From: Pseudomonadota bacterium
Lineage (GTDB): Bacteria; Desulfobacterota; Desulfobacteria; Desulfobacterales; JBDRRP01
Reading direction: 5' to 3'
Length of the DNA stretch: 20,000 bases
Assembly: GCA_043825735.1 (NCBI GenBank)
Contig: JBDRRP010000009.1
Location: 106,686 to 126,685 of the forward strand
Shown: positions 2,705-8,946 of the stretch, piece by piece
How positions within the stretch are numbered: position 1 is the first letter of the stretch
How the letters are laid out: each line of letters begins with the position of its first letter
Program-made: the position numbers and the translations under genes
Notes under the pieces: generated by a model
Seen by the model: only the letters and a program-made list of their open reading frames with translations
Database searches by the model: none
Told to the model about the DNA's origin: nothing

Positions 2705-4867
2705 ATGAAAATAGACAGAAGAAGTTTCTTGTCATTTGTGATCGGCGGTGCGGCGGGAACCGCCCTTTCCCCCCTGCCCTGGAAACTGACGGACGACAGC
2801 TCTATTTGGTCTCAAAACTGGCCCTGGACGCCGGTGCCTCAGGATGGCGAATATACAGTTACCAACACGGTGTGCACCCTTTGCCCCGGGGGCTGCGGTA
2901 TCTCTGTGAGAAAAGTCGATGACCGTGCCGTCAAGATCGAAGGCATCCCCGGTCATCCCATCAACGACGGCGGCATCTGCATTCTCGGCCTCTCCGGTCT
3001 GCAACTGCTCTACGGGCCGACCCGAATCAGCGCACCGATGAAGCGCGTGGGCGTGCGGGGGGGCGGTGAGTGGCAGGAGATTTCCTGGGAAGAGGCCATT
3101 CAAAGCCTGGCAGAAAAGCTGACCGACATTCGCAGTGGCGGCAATCCGCACCATGTGGCCTGCATGGCCGGCTCCGGCCGGGGTACCACCTACCGTCTGA
3201 TGGACCGGTTTCTGCAGGCCTACGGATCCCCCAATTTCATACGCATACCCAGCCTGGATGACTCCCTCGAACTGGCCATTTACCGCACAATGGGCAATGT
3301 CGCCACAGCGGGTTTCGATGTCGAAAACGCCGACTTTGTCGTCAGCTTCGGCGCCGGCCTCATCGAAGGCTGGGGCTCACCGGTGCGGATGTTCCGCGCC
3401 AAGAGTCAGTGGACGGATTCCGGCGCGCGGTTGGTTCAGATCGATTCGCGCCTGTCCATCACGGCCGCCAAATCAGACAAATGGGTGCCCATCAATCCGG
3501 GCACGGAAATGGCCCTGGCCCTGGGTCTGGCCCATGTCATTTTGAAGGAGGCGCTCTACCGCTTCGATCCGACCCGTTTTGATGACGCCAGTTTTAACGC
3601 CTTTCAGCGCAATGTGCTCGCCAATTACGGCCCGGAAAAGGTCGCAGCCGTAACCGGAACCGACCCGTCCACCATTATTTCCCTGGCCAGAGCCTTTGCC
3701 CGGGCCAAGCGACCGCTGGCCCTTTGCGGCAGGGGGCAAGGCCGTACGCCCATTGCGGTCGGAGAAGCTATGGCGGTGCTTGCCCTCAACGCCCTGGTGG
3801 GTGGCCTCGGCCGCGAAGGCGGCATGGTCCCCGTGCCGGACATGGATTACATCCAGTGGCCGGACCCGGAAATGGACGCCGTGGCGTCGGCCGGTCAGCA
3901 GGCCGGTCGCATCGACGGTGCCGATACCGATGCCCGGTGCATTGCCCATCGGATTTCCAAGGGAACTTACGGCCTTGAGGTCTTGATGGTCGCCGGTGCC
4001 AACCCGCTGTATTCCCTGCCCGACACGGCGGCAATGAAGCGTGCGCTGGCAGACATCCCCTTGATCGTGAGTTTTTCCTCCTACATGGATGAGACCGCCG
4101 CGTTTGCGGATCTGCTGCTTCCCAATCATCACTATCTTGAACGCTTTGAAGATGTTCCCACCCCGGCAGGGTTTCCCCGTCAGATGCTGTCACTGGCCAA
4201 ACCGGTGGTGGCGCCCCTGTACAACACACGGCACACTGGCGATGTCATGATCGGCCTGGCCAACGCCATGGGTGAGCCCATCGCGGGCGCCTTTCCCTGG
4301 GGCGATTATCAGAGCTGCCTTGCTGAAACACTCGGTGATGCCTTCGATACACTTCTTGAATCGGTCACCATGGTCGAAGAGGGCCTTCCCGAGATGGCTA
4401 TTGAAACCGATTCCGGCCACATCGAACTGCCGAGCGGAGCGTTCACAGCGGTGGCGGCAGCCGGTGATGCCAAACAGTTCCCCCTGATTTTGCTCCCCTA
4501 CGATTCCATGCGACTGGCCAGCGGTTACATCGGAGATCCACCCTTCATGGTAAAGACTGTCGAAGACACCGTGCTCAAGGGACAAGACGTTTTCGTGGAC
4601 ATCAATCCGCAGACGGCCGGCAAGCTTGGTTTCAAGGACGGCGCCCGCGCCACCCTGACCACCCCCGTTGGCAAGGCTCCTGTGCGGATCCACCTGTCCG
4701 AGGGGATCATGCCCGGTGTGGTGGCCATGCCGCGCGGGTTGGGTCATACGGCCTATGACGATTACCTGGCCGGCAAAGGCCAGAACTTCAATGATCTGAT
4801 CGGCCCGGTCGAGGACCCGTCTTCCGGCCTCGATGCTGCCTGGGGAATCCGCGCGCAGCTCAGCTAA
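2705..4867 (+). CDS. qrcB: Menaquinone reductase molybdopterin-oxidoreductase-like subunit QrcB
   Basis: Twin-arginine signal 'DRRSFL'; 'PWKLTDDSSIWSQNWPW' N-terminal motif; Fe-S motif CTLCPGGC...C; DMSO-reductase-family features; lies between qrcA and qrcC. Confidence 0.92.
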   Translation: MKIDRRSFLSFVIGGAAGTALSPLPWKLTDDSSIWSQNWPWTPVPQDGEYTVTNTVCTLCPGGCGISVRKVDDRAVKIEGIPGHPINDGGICILGLSGLQLLYGPTRISAPMKRVGVRGGGEWQEISWEEAIQSLAEKLTDIRSGGNPHHVACMAGSGRGTTYRLMDRFLQAYGSPNFIRIPSLDDSLELAIYRTMGNVATAGFDVENADFVVSFGAGLIEGWGSPVRMFRAKSQWTDSGARLVQIDSRLSITAAKSDKWVPINPGTEMALALGLAHVILKEALYRFDPTRFDDASFNAFQRNVLANYGPEKVAAVTGTDPSTIISLARAFARAKRPLALCGRGQGRTPIAVGEAMAVLALNALVGGLGREGGMVPVPDMDYIQWPDPEMDAVASAGQQAGRIDGADTDARCIAHRISKGTYGLEVLMVAGANPLYSLPDTAAMKRALADIPLIVSFSSYMDETAAFADLLLPNHHYLERFEDVPTPAGFPRQMLSLAKPVVAPLYNTRHTGDVMIGLANAMGEPIAGAFPWGDYQSCLAETLGDAFDTLLESVTMVEEGLPEMAIETDSGHIELPSGAFTAVAAAGDAKQFPLILLPYDSMRLASGYIGDPPFMVKTVEDTVLKGQDVFVDINPQTAGKLGFKDGARATLTTPVGKAPVRIHLSEGIMPGVVAMPRGLGHTAYDDYLAGKGQNFNDLIGPVEDPSSGLDAAWGIRAQLS

Positions 4868-4891: not shown

Positions 4892-5707
4892 ATGAAAAAA
4901 GGACACTCAAACGCCAAGAAGTACGGGATGGTCATCGATCTGGACAAGTGTACCGGCTGCGGCGCCTGCATGGTGGCATGCATGTCGGAAAACAATGTGT
5001 CGTTCAAGAAAGATGAATCAGACAAGTTGACCAGTATCACCTGGATGAAAGTTTTTCGGATCGGCAACGGCAAGCACTTTCCGGACGCCGACTATATCTT
5101 TCTTCCAAGACCGTGCATGCACTGTGAGGGCAGTCACGGACATTCACCGTGTGTCTCCGTATGCCCGGCCACTGCTACCGATTACAGCCAGGAGACCGGG
5201 CATGTCAGCCAGATCTACACCCGGTGCTTTGGCTGCCGCTACTGCATGGGGGCCTGCCCTTACCATGCCCGGTACTTCAACTGGTACGATCCGGTCTGGC
5301 CCGAGGGGATGGAACGCTATCTCAGCCCCAACGTGTCGCCGCGTATGCGCGGTATCGTCGAAAAGTGCAGCTTCTGTTTTCACCGCTACCAGCTGGCCAT
5401 GGAAAAGGCATTTGTCGAAGAACGCAGAGAACTCGAAGAAGGCGAATACCAGACGGCCTGCACTCAGGCTTGTCCGGCGGGCGCTATCACTTTCGGCGAT
5501 CTTAACAACCCCGACCACGCGGTGCACCAGATCGCGCAGCCCGATGCGGCCCACGGCGGCCGCCCCGGGAATCCGAAGGCGTTTCGTTTGCTGGAGGAAC
5601 TGGGGACCAACCCAAAAGTCTATTATTTGTCCAGCCGAGACTGGGTACTGAAAATGGGCGCCGATTTCATCGGAAAGAAGGGCGGCGCTGCTGGCGGTGG
5701 CCACTGA
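4892..5707 (+). CDS. qrcC: Menaquinone reductase iron-sulfur subunit QrcC (four-cluster, NrfC-like)
   Basis: Four Cys groups: CTGCGACMVAC, CMHC...PCVSVCP, CFGCRYCMGACP, CSFC...ACTQACP; C-terminal 'LGTNPKVYYL'. Confidence 0.93.
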   Translation: MKKGHSNAKKYGMVIDLDKCTGCGACMVACMSENNVSFKKDESDKLTSITWMKVFRIGNGKHFPDADYIFLPRPCMHCEGSHGHSPCVSVCPATATDYSQETGHVSQIYTRCFGCRYCMGACPYHARYFNWYDPVWPEGMERYLSPNVSPRMRGIVEKCSFCFHRYQLAMEKAFVEERRELEEGEYQTACTQACPAGAITFGDLNNPDHAVHQIAQPDAAHGGRPGNPKAFRLLEELGTNPKVYYLSSRDWVLKMGADFIGKKGGAAGGGH

Positions 5708-5770: not shown

Positions 5771-7063
5771 ATGGATTCTGCATTAATTCCCAAGGGAGTC
5801 AAACGATGCCCCACCTGGCAGTTTGCGCTGTGGATTGGCGCCGTGGGGGCCGTTCTGCTGTGGGGTGTCTATGCCATGCTGCTCTGCTGGTTCAAGGGCC
5901 TCAACCAGACCAACATGAACGACTACTACGGCTTCGCCCTGTGGATCTGGGCCGATCTGGCCGTCATCGCACTGGGCGGCGGCGCGTTTTTTTCGGGGCT
6001 TTTGAAGTATATCATCGGAAAAGACGATCTCAAGCACATCATCAATTTCGCCGTTCTGATCGGGTTCATCTGTTACAGTTCGGCACTGCTCATCCTGGCC
6101 ATTGACATCGGTCAGCCGCTCCGGGGGTGGTTCATCTTCTGGCATGCCAATGTGCACTCCATGCTTACCGAGGTGGCATTCTGCCTGAGCTGCTACTTTG
6201 GTGTGCTGACCATCGAGTACATCCCGCTGATTCTGGAAAACCGGCAGGTCGACAAGATCCCTTTTTTCCACAACCTCAGCCACAACATGCACGAAGTCAT
6301 GGCTGTTTTCGCCGCCACCGGCGCATTCCTGAGCTTTTTCCATCAGGGATCCCTCGGCGGCGTGGCCGGTGTGCTCTTCGGAAGGCCCTTTGCCTGGCGT
6401 GAACACTTCTTTATCTGGCCCACCACCTTTTTCCTCTTCACCTGGTCGGCTGCGGCCTACGGTCCCTGCTTTACCATTGCACTCGTGAAGTTGACCGAAA
6501 AGATTACGGGCAAAAAGCTCGTCAAAGACACCGCCGTTCATCTGCTGGCCAAGATTTCGGGCTGGATGATCCTCACCTACAGTATCGCCAAGTCGGTCGA
6601 CACCCTCTACTGGGCCACACAGACCGATGTCATGGCGTTTTACGCCAACAACCCGCTGTACAAGATCCCGATGCTCTTTTTCGAAATCGTCATCTGTGGT
6701 TTTGTCCCGGGCATCATGCTGATCACCGGCAAGGTGCGGCAGATGGAAAAACTGCTGGTGACGGCAACCGTGCTGGGCATCATCGGCGTCAGCCTCAACC
6801 GTTGGGTTATGGTGCTTCAGGTCATGGCTGTGCCCATCATGCCCTTTGACCAGTGGGCCATGTACATCCCGAGCTGGCAGGAAATCGCGACCACTGTCTT
6901 GCCGGTCGCTTATGGCGTGATCCTGGTCTCTTTGTCCTACCGGTACCTACCGGTGTTTCCGGATGAAGCCGAATTGAACCCCATCGCGACTGCAGCGCCC
7001 GCTGCCGGGGACGCGTCTGAAGACGCCGCCACCGGTGCCGATCTGCAGCCGGCCGAAGCCTAA
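5771..7063 (+). CDS. qrcD: Menaquinone reductase integral membrane subunit QrcD (NrfD/PsrC family)
   Basis: Polytopic membrane protein with 'GLNQTNMND', 'DIGQPLRGWFIFWHANVHSMLTEV', 'FLSFFHQGSLGG' and 'YIPSWQE'; AGGAG RBS upstream. Confidence 0.93.
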   Translation: MDSALIPKGVKRCPTWQFALWIGAVGAVLLWGVYAMLLCWFKGLNQTNMNDYYGFALWIWADLAVIALGGGAFFSGLLKYIIGKDDLKHIINFAVLIGFICYSSALLILAIDIGQPLRGWFIFWHANVHSMLTEVAFCLSCYFGVLTIEYIPLILENRQVDKIPFFHNLSHNMHEVMAVFAATGAFLSFFHQGSLGGVAGVLFGRPFAWREHFFIWPTTFFLFTWSAAAYGPCFTIALVKLTEKITGKKLVKDTAVHLLAKISGWMILTYSIAKSVDTLYWATQTDVMAFYANNPLYKIPMLFFEIVICGFVPGIMLITGKVRQMEKLLVTATVLGIIGVSLNRWVMVLQVMAVPIMPFDQWAMYIPSWQEIATTVLPVAYGVILVSLSYRYLPVFPDEAELNPIATAAPAAGDASEDAATGADLQPAEA

Positions 7064-7083
7064 ACCGCACAAGGAGGATTCGC

Positions 7084-7245
7084 ATGTTTCCCTTTAATTT
7101 TGAATGGATCTGGGACATGTCCCATCTCATATTCATGGGCGGACTGTGGTATGCCATCTCCATCCTTGGCATGGGAATGACCTACTGCATCCTCAAGGCC
7201 GGATGGGACGCCTCGCAAGGGCACGGCGGCGGCCACCACCATTAG
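7084..7245 (+). CDS. Small single-TM protein, 53 aa, His-rich C-terminus; candidate Qrc-associated subunit
   Basis: Manual translation: MFPFNFEWIWDMSHLIFMGGLWYAISILGMGMTYCILKAGWDASQGHGGGHHH*. AAGGAGG RBS at 7071-7077 with 6-nt spacing; starts 20 nt after the qrcD stop and ends just before the terminator. Absent from the ORF track, presumably below its length cutoff. Confidence 0.85.
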   Translation: MFPFNFEWIWDMSHLIFMGGLWYAISILGMGMTYCILKAGWDASQGHGGGHHH

Positions 7246-7271
7246 CCCCAGCTGCCTGTCATGACCAAACG

Positions 7272-7306
7272 GCGCCGCCCCAGCGATTTGGGCGGCGCTT
7301 TTTTTT
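7272..7306 (+). terminator. Rho-independent terminator of the qrc operon
   Basis: GCGCCGCCC(7272-7280) / GGGCGGCGC(7290-7298) 9-bp GC stem followed by T8. Confidence 0.9.
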
Positions 7307-7320
7307 GAAGGCCGTAGCGC

Positions 7321-8574
7321 ATGGATCGGATTGTTATCGAAGGCGGGCGGCCGTTGAACGGCATCGCCGTGGTCGGCGGCTCCAAGAACGCGGCGCTGCC
7401 CATTCTGGTGGCGGCGCTGCTGGTGGATGGTGAGGTGACATTTGCCAATGTTCCCCGCCTGCACGATATTCGAAGCACCTGTGATCTTCTGGCCCATCTG
7501 GGCTGCCGGATATCGGTGGCCGGCGATCGTGTCAGCATCGATGCCGCCGGTCTGCACTGCCACGAAGCCCCCTATGACCTGGTGAGAAAGATGCGGGCCT
7601 CCATTCTGGTTCTGGGGCCCTTGCTGGCACGGTTGAAGCGTGCCAGGGTATCGCTGCCGGGGGGGTGTGCCATCGGTGCCCGGCCCATCAACCTTCACCT
7701 TGAAGGGATGAAGCGGCTGGGGGCCGCCATCGAGCTGCAACATGGTTATGTGGTGGCCTCCGCCAAACACCTCACCGGCGGCGACGTTTATTTCGATACG
7801 GCAACGGTGGGAGGGACCGAAAACCTCATGATGGCAGCCGTGCTGGCGGAAGGGGTCACGGTGCTCAAAAATGCCGCCAGGGAGCCGGAGATCAGTGCGC
7901 TTGCCGATGCATTGAACCAGATGGGCGCAGACGTCAGCGGGGCCGGCACATCGACCATCACCATCCGTGGCGTTGACCGTTTGAGGCCTGCCGAGATTCG
8001 CATCATTCCGGACCGCATCGAGTGCGGTACCCTGATGGTCGCTGCCGCCCTGACCGGTGGTGATGTGACCGTAGTGAACTGCGTGCCCGCGCATCTGGAC
8101 GCAGTGACCGAGAAATTGCGGGCCATGGGGGCATCGGTGACAACGGGAACCGAGGATATCCGGGTACAAGTACGCGGCGGCCTGCACCCGGCTGATATCC
8201 GGACCCTTCCTTTTCCGGGATTTCCCACCGACATGCAGGCCCAGTTCATGGTCCTGGCGTCGATCGCCGATGGCCAGAGCATCATCACGGAAACCATTTT
8301 CGAGAACCGCTTTATCCATGTCAGCGAACTGCGCCGGATGGGCGCCGATATCACTGTTACCGGAAACACCGCCATGGTCCGCGGCGTTAAGACCCTGTCT
8401 GGGGCTCCGGTCATGGCCTCGGATTTGAGGGCCAGCGCCTCCTTGATTCTGGCCGGCCTGGTCGCTGCCGGCCAGACCGTGGTCAGCCGGGTCTACCATC
8501 TTGACCGCGGATATGAGAAACTCGAAGAAAAACTGTCCAAGCTGGGTGCGATCATTCGCAGAGAGAAAGCATGA
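7321..8574 (+). CDS. murA: UDP-N-acetylglucosamine 1-carboxyvinyltransferase
   Basis: Motifs 'GSKNAALP', '[18 protein letters not shown]', '[12 protein letters not shown]' (active-site Cys retained), '[11 protein letters not shown]', 'ETIFENRF', 'YHLDRGYE'; 417 aa. Confidence 0.98.
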
Positions 8575-8626
8575 ACAGCGCTTGCTCAATACTCAATTTG
8601 ATTTTACCCCCTGGCACTGCGTTGGA

Positions 8627-8710
8627 ACCACGAAGACCACGAAGTGCACGAAGAAAAACCAAGGCAATAGCAAGTTAAAAAAACTTCATGTCCTTCGTGA
8701 ACTTCGTGGT
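8627..8710. repeat. Palindromic element of 9-bp-periodic CACGAAG x3 / CTTC(G/A)TG x3 arms
   Basis: ACCACGAAGACCACGAAGTGCACGAAG (8627-8653), 30-bp A-rich spacer, then CTTCATGTCCTTCGTGAACTTCGTGGT (8684-8710). Confidence 0.85.
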
Positions 8711-8946
8711 GCGTAAAAAAGAGGGTTTTGAAGCATCGACACGCTGACGATAGTTTTGTTCATAACCTGAAAGAATAATGGCTGCGCCGCCTGAGGCGGC
8801 GCCCCTATCTGTTGTCGTGCAGGACTTTCCGGGCCGGATCGCCGCGCCCCGCGGCTGCGTGTAACCCCTTCCTCCGGCTTCGTGCAAAAACCCTGCGGCG
8901 GGGTCCACCCCCCGGTGGTCCACCCCCGCGCCTGCCACGCCGTCTC

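Follow-up and report, generated by a model that had tools for sequence, protein, structure and literature searches.

Qrc is the menaquinone reductase through which electrons from periplasmic H2 and formate enter the menaquinone pool of sulfate reducers, and it forms one half of the redox loop thought to underlie energy conservation in sulfate respiration. Current arguments about how it works draw on homology models of QrcCD and on mutants in a helix bundle. The complex closest to Qrc is Alternative Complex III (ACIII), in which the small subunit ActD contacts transmembrane helices (TMHs) 4 and 5 of ActC, according to PMC5928083. Here we describe a small gene that directly follows qrcD, the last known gene of the qrcABCD operon, in a stretch of 20,000 nucleotides from a member of the Desulfobacterales (contig JBDRRP010000009.1 of assembly GCA_043825735.1, positions 106,686 to 126,685), hereafter called the window. 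We conclude that this gene probably encodes an unrecognised fifth component of Qrc. An initial annotation had proposed an overlooked Qrc-associated small membrane protein at this place, either a subunit or an assembly factor and a candidate 'QrcE', and the proposal is supported by five lines of evidence, namely co-occurrence with QrcD, position in the operon (40 genomes), purifying selection, a model of the complex that passes its controls, and a long form of the protein encoded at the same place in another lineage.

The gene is a 53-codon open reading frame (ORF) on the + strand at 7084-7245, stop included, between qrcD and murA. A Shine-Dalgarno sequence, AAGGAGG (7071-7077, + strand), precedes the ATG at a spacing of 6 nt, and 20 nt separate the ORF from the qrcD stop (7061-7063); the initial annotation had described the sequence correctly in every respect. 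An ATG start with a GGAGG-type motif 5' of it is present in most orthologous loci. The peptide is made up of a 14-residue aromatic/acidic N-terminus that closes with His14 and is predicted to be periplasmic (7084-7125), 23 hydrophobic residues (residues 15-37; 7126-7194) that would form a single TMH, and residues 38-53 (7195-7242), in which Lys38 leads into a Gly/His-rich tail (GHGGGHHH) predicted to be cytoplasmic. Between qrcD and the ORF, a consensus scan listed neither promoter-like nor terminator-like sites. On the 3' side, RNA folding of 7246-7312 gave a 10-bp G+C stem (7271-7280 paired with 7290-7299) with a 9-nt loop, followed by T8 (7299-7306). This hairpin (-27 kcal/mol, z -2.2; 7271-7306 with its T-run, + strand) qualifies as an intrinsic (Rho-independent) terminator, as had been claimed, and was not listed by the consensus scan because its 9-base loop exceeds the limit of 8 used there. 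At 26 of the 37 orthologous loci examined, a terminator-like hairpin (-10 kcal/mol or lower, before a T-run and within 140 nt) comes after the linked small gene, which thus closes the qrc unit.

The distribution of the small gene was compared with that of qrcD in a sample of 401 genomes of the phylum, in which a genome was counted as QrcD-positive when it had a match at E <= 1e-30 to the window's protein. QrcD was found in 88 of them. A profile of close homologues (A1) detected the small gene in 72 genomes, and a broader profile (A2), built from 63 sequences spanning all clades found by then, picked up all but one of the 16 QrcD-positive genomes without an A1 match. Over the full sample, A2 matched 87 genomes, with a single match in each and the weakest at E 5.5e-11. 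A comparison of the two tables placed all 87 within the 88 QrcD-positive genomes, and A2 found the small gene in none of the 313 QrcD-negative ones, so that the phyletic distribution of the gene matches that of the Qrc complex (87/88 positive, 0/313 negative). The only QrcD-positive genome without an A2 match (G044) is 66% complete; only 120 nt lie between the start of its qrcD match and the end of the contig, at the downstream flank where the small gene would be expected. DsrA scored above its cut-off in 201 of the 401 genomes, compared with 88 for QrcD; at least 113 DsrA-bearing genomes are therefore without both QrcD and the small gene, which argues that the latter is no mere signature of sulfate reducers. 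The two genes were also absent together within otherwise positive groups: both were lacking from the two genomes of family f41 of the window's order, each of which has DsrA, from genus g111 within f84 and from genus g112 within f85, and in f61 both were present in 11 of 12 genomes and both absent from the remaining one. Five genomes of the window's order gave no profile match, and the best QrcD score among them was 121 bits against a cut-off of 570.

The gene occurs in two arrangements. In the linked type (40 of the 87 genomes; Desulfobacterales and Desulfarculaceae), it is the next gene 3' of qrcD and has the same orientation, with a gap between the two matches of -12 to 428 nt (median ~21). 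In a first search, this position was seen in 20 of 20 loci, and the lack of homologues adjoining qrcD, which would have spoken against the initial proposal, was thus not observed. murA is the next gene in 17 of the 18 first-search loci that were long enough, from various families of the order; the order qrcD-small gene-murA is held across these families though a terminator parts the qrc unit from murA. Because the whole block is syntenic inside the Desulfobacterales, the position 3' of qrcD proves little there. Unlinked copies were found in Syntrophobacterales (Desulfosoma, Desulfoferrobacter, Syntrophobacteraceae), in Candidatus Desulfofervidus, and in Desulfovibrionaceae such as Humidesulfovibrio. 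The gene thus stays with QrcD outside the operon as well, and no other observation argues as strongly that the two are functionally connected. In the Desulfovibrionaceae, the copy was unlinked to qrc in both members checked; since the biochemistry of Qrc was carried out with this family, the gene may have gone unnoticed for that reason. The Syntrophobacterales form (243 called proteins) is 64-70 aa long and has an N-terminal extension. The extension comprises ~17 conserved residues before the shared motif, and a ribosome-binding site lies upstream of it (L055-L059, L064-L067); it contains Lys and Arg, a poor fit with an N-terminus that is simply exposed to the periplasm.

When the window's genome and 40 relatives were searched by tblastn with the peptide, 35 of the 41 gave an intact match, free of stops and at E <= 3e-10. 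Called homologues in the protein database form 59 clusters of 52-79 aa, each named only 'hypothetical protein', and no Pfam domain was found in these 59. The ORF is called in many public records, and the initial view that it is hidden or lost to gene callers was wrong; what is absent is a name. One JGI record for a 52-aa protein (P0238, in the cluster of the homologue at L047) reads 'energy-converting hydrogenase Eha subunit G', probably a wrong label assigned automatically, since all other members of the cluster that have a name are 'hypothetical protein'. Residues M1, P3, F4, F6, E7, W8, W10, D11, H14, G19, G20, L21 and G31 are invariant in 60 close homologues and K38 is nearly so; H14 is at least 90% conserved in the phylum-wide alignment. 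The His tail is not universal: at least two His residues are found among the last eight in 47 of 63 members and a final His in 50, and 8 members have none. The tail can therefore not be essential to what the family does at its core, and any role it has should rank below those of the motif and the helix. Among 25 same-order orthologues, the majority-base fractions at codon positions 1, 2 and 3 were 0.83, 0.91 and 0.60, and median pN was 0.17 compared with a pS of 0.75. The dN/dS ratio, for which a value below 1 had been proposed as a check, had a median of 0.127 and a maximum of 0.42 in the 143 of 300 pairs with unsaturated pS. No frame disruption, which had been named as evidence that would overturn the proposal, was detected in the homologues, and the other reading frames are closed in most of the 25 orthologues. 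The protein is conserved across orders despite an entirely different DNA context. The small ORF is a real gene under purifying selection.

Modelling of the complex, another check suggested in the initial annotation, gave a positive result with QrcD. The model of QrcD with the small protein, folded from an alignment of 38 QrcD rows (A3) and one of 38 small-protein rows from the same loci (A4), scored 0.61 (0.63, 0.54 and 0.61 in separate runs), compared with 0.00 for the best of three controls. In the calibration of the tool, 116 of 157 solved complexes attained this mark, as did 2 of 215 mismatched pairs. Partner pLDDT was at least 66, and the runs shared at least 82% of their contacts. From the model we infer that the small protein binds QrcD. 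Hydropathy analysis of QrcD gave ten hydrophobic segments, with TMH4 at residues ~128-155 and TMH5 at ~173-192. The modelled contacts run along the whole helix of the small protein, and the interface on QrcD is formed by residues 126-148 and 164-187, that is, by TMH4/5. Residues 13-14 of the small protein contact QrcD residues 126-129, residues 24-32 contact 141-148 and 179-187, and residues 34-46 contact 164-173 in the cytoplasmic TMH4-5 loop, which carries H167, H171 and H174.

Residues with a published function in QrcD of N. vulgaris are D70, Y110, D120, S138 (quinone site), Y150, R358 and E413 (proton path), as given in PMC13059093. None of the 38 + 14 QrcD sequences compared has this residue numbering. 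By sequence, these residues would correspond to D62, Y102, D112, S130 and Y142 (offset 8) and to R344 and E399 (offset 14) of the window's protein, and all seven are invariant in A3. Given this constant-offset mapping, the helix of the small protein is predicted to lie on the TMH4 that bears the quinone-site Ser and a proton-path Tyr. In the model, the N-terminus is out and the C-terminus in, an orientation that agrees with the near-invariant Lys38 and with the basic stretch that comes after the helix in the long form described below. The topology predicted for the small protein is thus a periplasmic N-terminus and a cytoplasmic tail. The initial annotation had pointed to a likeness between this tail and the C-terminus of QrcC. 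QrcC does end in ...GGAAGGGH, but the likeness is probably incidental because the QrcC tail is periplasmic and the prediction for the His tail of the small protein is the cytoplasm.

In a search of 1.84 billion representatives with the profile, 173 members of the family were found at E <= 1e-3, of which 71 were at E <= 1e-10. Most of the 173 are 44-110 aa long. Long forms, mainly of 264-288 aa but in some cases of 203, 226 or 323 aa, have the same module at residues 1-46; examples are proteins P0334, P0336 and P0343 and loci L181, L196, L200, L201 and L214 (match at ~8001-8830). In these, the module leads through basic residues into a linker that has four conserved Cys, and then into a GCV_H-like domain, with a match to PF01597 (GCV_H) at E 3e-10 to 5e-5 in 13 of 17 scanned long forms (226-288 aa). 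The long forms reached at most 41 bits, compared with cut-offs of 116-117 for the GcvH equivalogs, and no conserved Lys column stood out as a lipoyl-lysine when the long-form alignment was read by eye. Metagenome contigs were scanned with a motif of the GcvH-like domain; at least 600 stretches were found, 587 of those listed encode a relative, and 80 loci were kept and searched by tblastn with QrcA-D of the window. The 21 loci with at least ~6.4 kb of upstream sequence were inspected, and in all 21, qrcA-, qrcB-, qrcC- and qrcD-like genes lie directly upstream of the long form, in that order and on the same strand, with a QrcD identity of ~49%. At L181, the QrcD-like and QrcA-like proteins are above their NCBIfam cut-offs (592.7 bits against 570 and 213.6 against 180), and the QrcC-like and QrcB-like proteins are below theirs (346.6 against 400 and 149.5 against 440).

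The long form thus occupies the same place in the operon, and so independently supports the view that the module is part of Qrc. Another lineage probably has a variant of Qrc with a cytoplasmic module, of which the long form is the mark, and the long form suggests that the 53-residue protein is its anchor-only version and that Qrc-type complexes outside the Desulfobacterota have an overlooked cytoplasmic module. At L181 alone, a soluble, Cys-rich protein of 294 aa with a GcvH-like domain is encoded just before the qrcA-like gene (2725-3606, + strand); it is a distant paralogue of the cytoplasmic part of the long form (23% identity, E 5e-8). Two other candidates were set aside. A protein of 470 aa (P0398), with a QrcD-like part joined through an Arg-rich stretch to the N-terminus of a long form, was taken as a frame-fused gene call and not a fusion, and a 407-aa protein in the 90% cluster of a small homologue (P0190) was rejected as unrelated sequence.

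We consider it likely that the small protein is an accessory subunit on TMH4/5 of QrcD, where it would stabilise or tune the helices around the quinone site and the proton path. According to this reading, a 53-residue single-pass inner-membrane protein would be the product of the last gene of the qrcABCD operon and would work with the menaquinone reductase. Its aromatic/acidic N-terminal motif with His14 would lie at the periplasmic surface of the membrane, its helix would pack on TMH4 (with S130 and Y142) and TMH5 of QrcD, and Lys38 and the His-rich tail would be on the cytoplasmic side, adjoining the His-containing TMH4-5 loop. One could envisage that the cytoplasmic His cluster and H167, H171 and H174 gather protons for the uptake from the cytoplasm that has been demonstrated for Qrc, and that the periplasmic aromatic motif lines the entry of the quinone; both suggestions are speculative. 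A more comprehensive picture joins these elements. Qrc would be a five-component complex wherever it is present, with the fifth helix at the position of ActD on TMH4/5 of QrcD; the FEW-WD-x-x-H motif would shape quinone entry at the QrcC/QrcD interface; the His cluster and the TMH4-5 loop would serve as a proton antenna for electrogenic uptake; and a second lineage, known from peat and soil metagenomes, would tether a cytoplasmic module with four Cys and a GcvH-like domain, with a soluble paralogue encoded before qrcA, which would provide Qrc with a partner in the cytoplasm and make it a transmembrane link, not solely a device between periplasm and quinone. We put this picture forward tentatively, and it is rather doubtful that all of its parts hold together.

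Several observations weigh against a fifth subunit. Qrc is described as a four-subunit complex of ~230 kDa, a gel of the Strep-tagged rQrcABCD, which is active in liposomes, shows 'all four subunits', and qrcABCD supplied in trans complements a qrcABCD deletion and restores growth, as stated in PMC13059093. The four-subunit reports count for little, because a hydrophobic peptide of ~6 kDa is easily missed on gels, and so does the complementation, because an unlinked copy may have stayed in the chromosome. Mass spectrometry (MS) of pure Qrc was searched against 'uniprot-desulfovibrio-filtered-reviewed.fasta', according to supplementary file 4 of PMC6303296; a database of reviewed entries could not contain an uncharacterised protein. 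The gene is unlinked in 47 of the 87 genomes (on the same contig at a distance of 80-497 kb in 4 and on another contig in 43), and nine unlinked representatives examined with 5-kb flanks lie in unrelated housekeeping contexts, among them PhoH/TatC, phosphoglucomutase, a short-chain dehydrogenase/reductase (SDR) together with a methyltransferase, YqeY, and a periplasmic binding protein. One unlinked copy (L060) adjoins a class III cytochrome c gene. No neighbour recurs in the nine flanks, and an alternative partner suggested by the neighbours was rejected on this ground. To the same side of the balance belong the eight members that have no His tail and the outcome of the search for longer forms, in which no natural fusion of QrcD with the small protein was found, itself weak evidence. 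Related genomes are not independent, and the 401 genomes amount to about six independent concordant switches, not to 401 data points. The calibration of the modelling tool did not include alignments of the A3/A4 kind, and since ActC-ActD structures of ACIII have been solved, the passing score may partly reflect that likeness.

Three other explanations were weighed against an accessory subunit. The most serious of them, which we nevertheless judge unlikely, is a transient role in the assembly or membrane insertion of QrcD, or of the QrcCD module, in which case the protein would be absent from the mature complex. Many small single-pass proteins encoded in respiratory operons are assembly factors, and the co-occurrence, the linkage and the predicted contact with QrcD fit such a role equally well. 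The purified, active Qrc reported with four subunits (PMC13059093) is what this explanation would lead one to expect, but the published gels and MS could not have revealed the peptide. A long helix-to-helix packing over the full membrane span, on the most conserved face of TMH4/5, is predicted by the model and is typical of a stable subunit, and the cytoplasmic domain of ~225 residues that the long form carries on the same anchor suits a permanent tether better than a transient factor.

It is considerably less probable that the protein is an independent small membrane protein of Qrc physiology (periplasmic oxidation of H2 or formate via cytochrome c3) that works outside the complex, for example as a Ni- or Zn-handling peptide that uses its His-rich tail, or as a partner of another membrane protein. 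Many metal-binding proteins have tails rich in His, and both the 47 unlinked copies and the cytochrome c gene beside one of them would fit this explanation. The unlinked copies have no recurrent alternative neighbour, however, and the conserved core is the N-terminal motif with the helix, not the His tail. In addition, several orders have the gene inside the qrc unit, after qrcD and ahead of the terminator, the long form has a corresponding place in another lineage, and the model with QrcD passes while the three controls remain at 0.00. That the ORF is non-coding, a chance reading frame in the qrcD 3' untranslated region or in the murA leader, is an explanation to which we attach almost no weight. 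The ORF is short, and the qrcD-ORF-murA block is syntenic across the order (17/18 loci), so that synteny cannot discriminate there. Variation is dominated by the third codon position, however, with a dN/dS of 0.13, no strong match contains a stop and few orthologues have another frame open, conservation of the protein extends to orders with wholly different DNA contexts, and the terminator sets the ORF apart from murA. A chance ORF or an RNA element is ruled out by the codon-position pattern, the dN/dS ratio and the conservation of the protein across orders. An accessory subunit on QrcD is thus the explanation that we favour.

The genes of the operon were identified with NCBIfam equivalog models against their curated cut-offs, and all four products are above them. 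On the + strand, qrcA (1959-2627; NF041781, 253.4 bits, cut-off 180) encodes a multihaem cytochrome c with Pfam matches to cytochrome c3/c7, qrcB (2705-4867; NF041783, 583.4 bits, cut-off 440) a molybdopterin-binding-like subunit, qrcC (4892-5707; NF041782, 429.6 bits, cut-off 400) the 4Fe-4S subunit, and qrcD (5771-7063; NF041784, 652.3 bits, cut-off 570) the NrfD-type membrane subunit. QrcD of the window has 430 aa, compared with ~410-413 aa in most orthologues and 432-444 aa in a few relatives, and its C-terminal extension (residues ~405-430; 6983-7060) is rich in Ala, Asp, Glu and Pro. Upstream of qrcA on the + strand are the genes for ResB (3-836) and CcsA (889-1734), a System II for cytochrome c biogenesis that is set apart from the qrc operon by a terminator-like hairpin at 1876-1906; downstream of the small gene are those for MurA (7321-8574) and then ComEC. 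A 509-aa ORF on the - strand (7060-8589) overlaps murA and the small gene. Its frame over the small gene is open in only 12 of 25 orthologues, and we take it as a shadow ORF of G+C-rich DNA.

RNA-library contigs (Logan; sediment metatranscriptomes, from relatives at 90-99% identity) span the 3' end of qrcD and the small ORF. The bridging contigs cover 6814-7141 (X2), 6943-7230 (X3) and 6860-7257 (X4), and a further one, with two differences, covers 6839-7092 (X1). They are a weak hint that the small ORF is co-transcribed with qrcD, as assembled contigs are no proof of one continuous transcript and DNA may be present in RNA libraries. The shares of words were 0.19 or less, which gives no basis for a claim on habitat. 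In four runs, no RNA-library contig covered 7258-7420, and nothing was drawn from that.

Searches for an existing description of the protein gave the following results. The window protein matches no Pfam or NCBIfam family; a characterised family, which would have countered the claim of novelty, was therefore not found in these two collections. A Pfam scan of 63 members returned only noise (no family was touched by more than 3 of the 63, and all matches were at E >= 0.018). When the PDB was searched by sequence, the family profile had no match (best E 1.4) and QrcD had no Qrc chain. All Atlas neighbours of the small protein are named 'hypothetical protein', with no named cluster among them. In the literature searched, 'QrcE' occurs only as the electrochemical abbreviation QRCE, the listed papers on small-protein terms do not mention qrcD, those listed on GcvH or glycine cleavage do not mention qrcABCD, and DVU0691 is not mentioned. 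The main text of the G20 fitness paper names only Dde_2932-2935. The protein would be a new, unnamed small accessory member attached to a complex thought to be complete, of a kind (small accessory subunits of respiratory complexes) that is already known. If this is true, models of Qrc, the interpretation of its mutants, and measurements of reconstitution and stoichiometry must include a fifth component, as the small protein is predicted to touch the very helix bundle from which the mechanism is argued. The gene also provides a clean example of a small database 'hypothetical' protein whose partner can be named from the phyletic pattern alone.

Short hydrophobic peptides that were found late, are encoded in or near the operon, and stabilise or tune large membrane enzymes are known from cytochrome bd (CydX), cbb3 oxidase (CcoM/CcoQ) and ba3 oxidases (subunit IIa). 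None of these has a sequence relationship to the small protein in Pfam, and each belongs to another enzyme and has another motif. The GcvH, or lipoate-binding, fold is matched by the long form only, and the 53-aa protein of the window is without that domain; unlike GcvH, moreover, the long form is fused to a membrane anchor and a four-Cys linker. The closest parallels are found in ACIII. In PMC5928083, ActG is described as an accessory subunit without cofactors that has one predicted TMH and whose gene is part of act clusters, and ActH as a subunit that had been annotated as hypothetical and was found only when the structure was solved, a precedent for subunits that go unnoticed. The likeness to ActG and ActH is one of description, and of the 88 genomes with QrcD, 87 also encode the small protein. 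In ActD, two TMHs are combined with beta-alpha-beta motifs at both ends that form a cytoplasmic sheet (PMC5928083), whereas the small protein has one TMH and 53 residues; with its single hydrophobic segment and no Pfam match, it does not appear to belong to the ActD sequence family. Like ActD, the small protein is proposed to be a cofactor-free small membrane subunit, and the place of ActD on TMH4/5 of ActC is the place predicted for the small protein on QrcD, a positional likeness that comes from the model.

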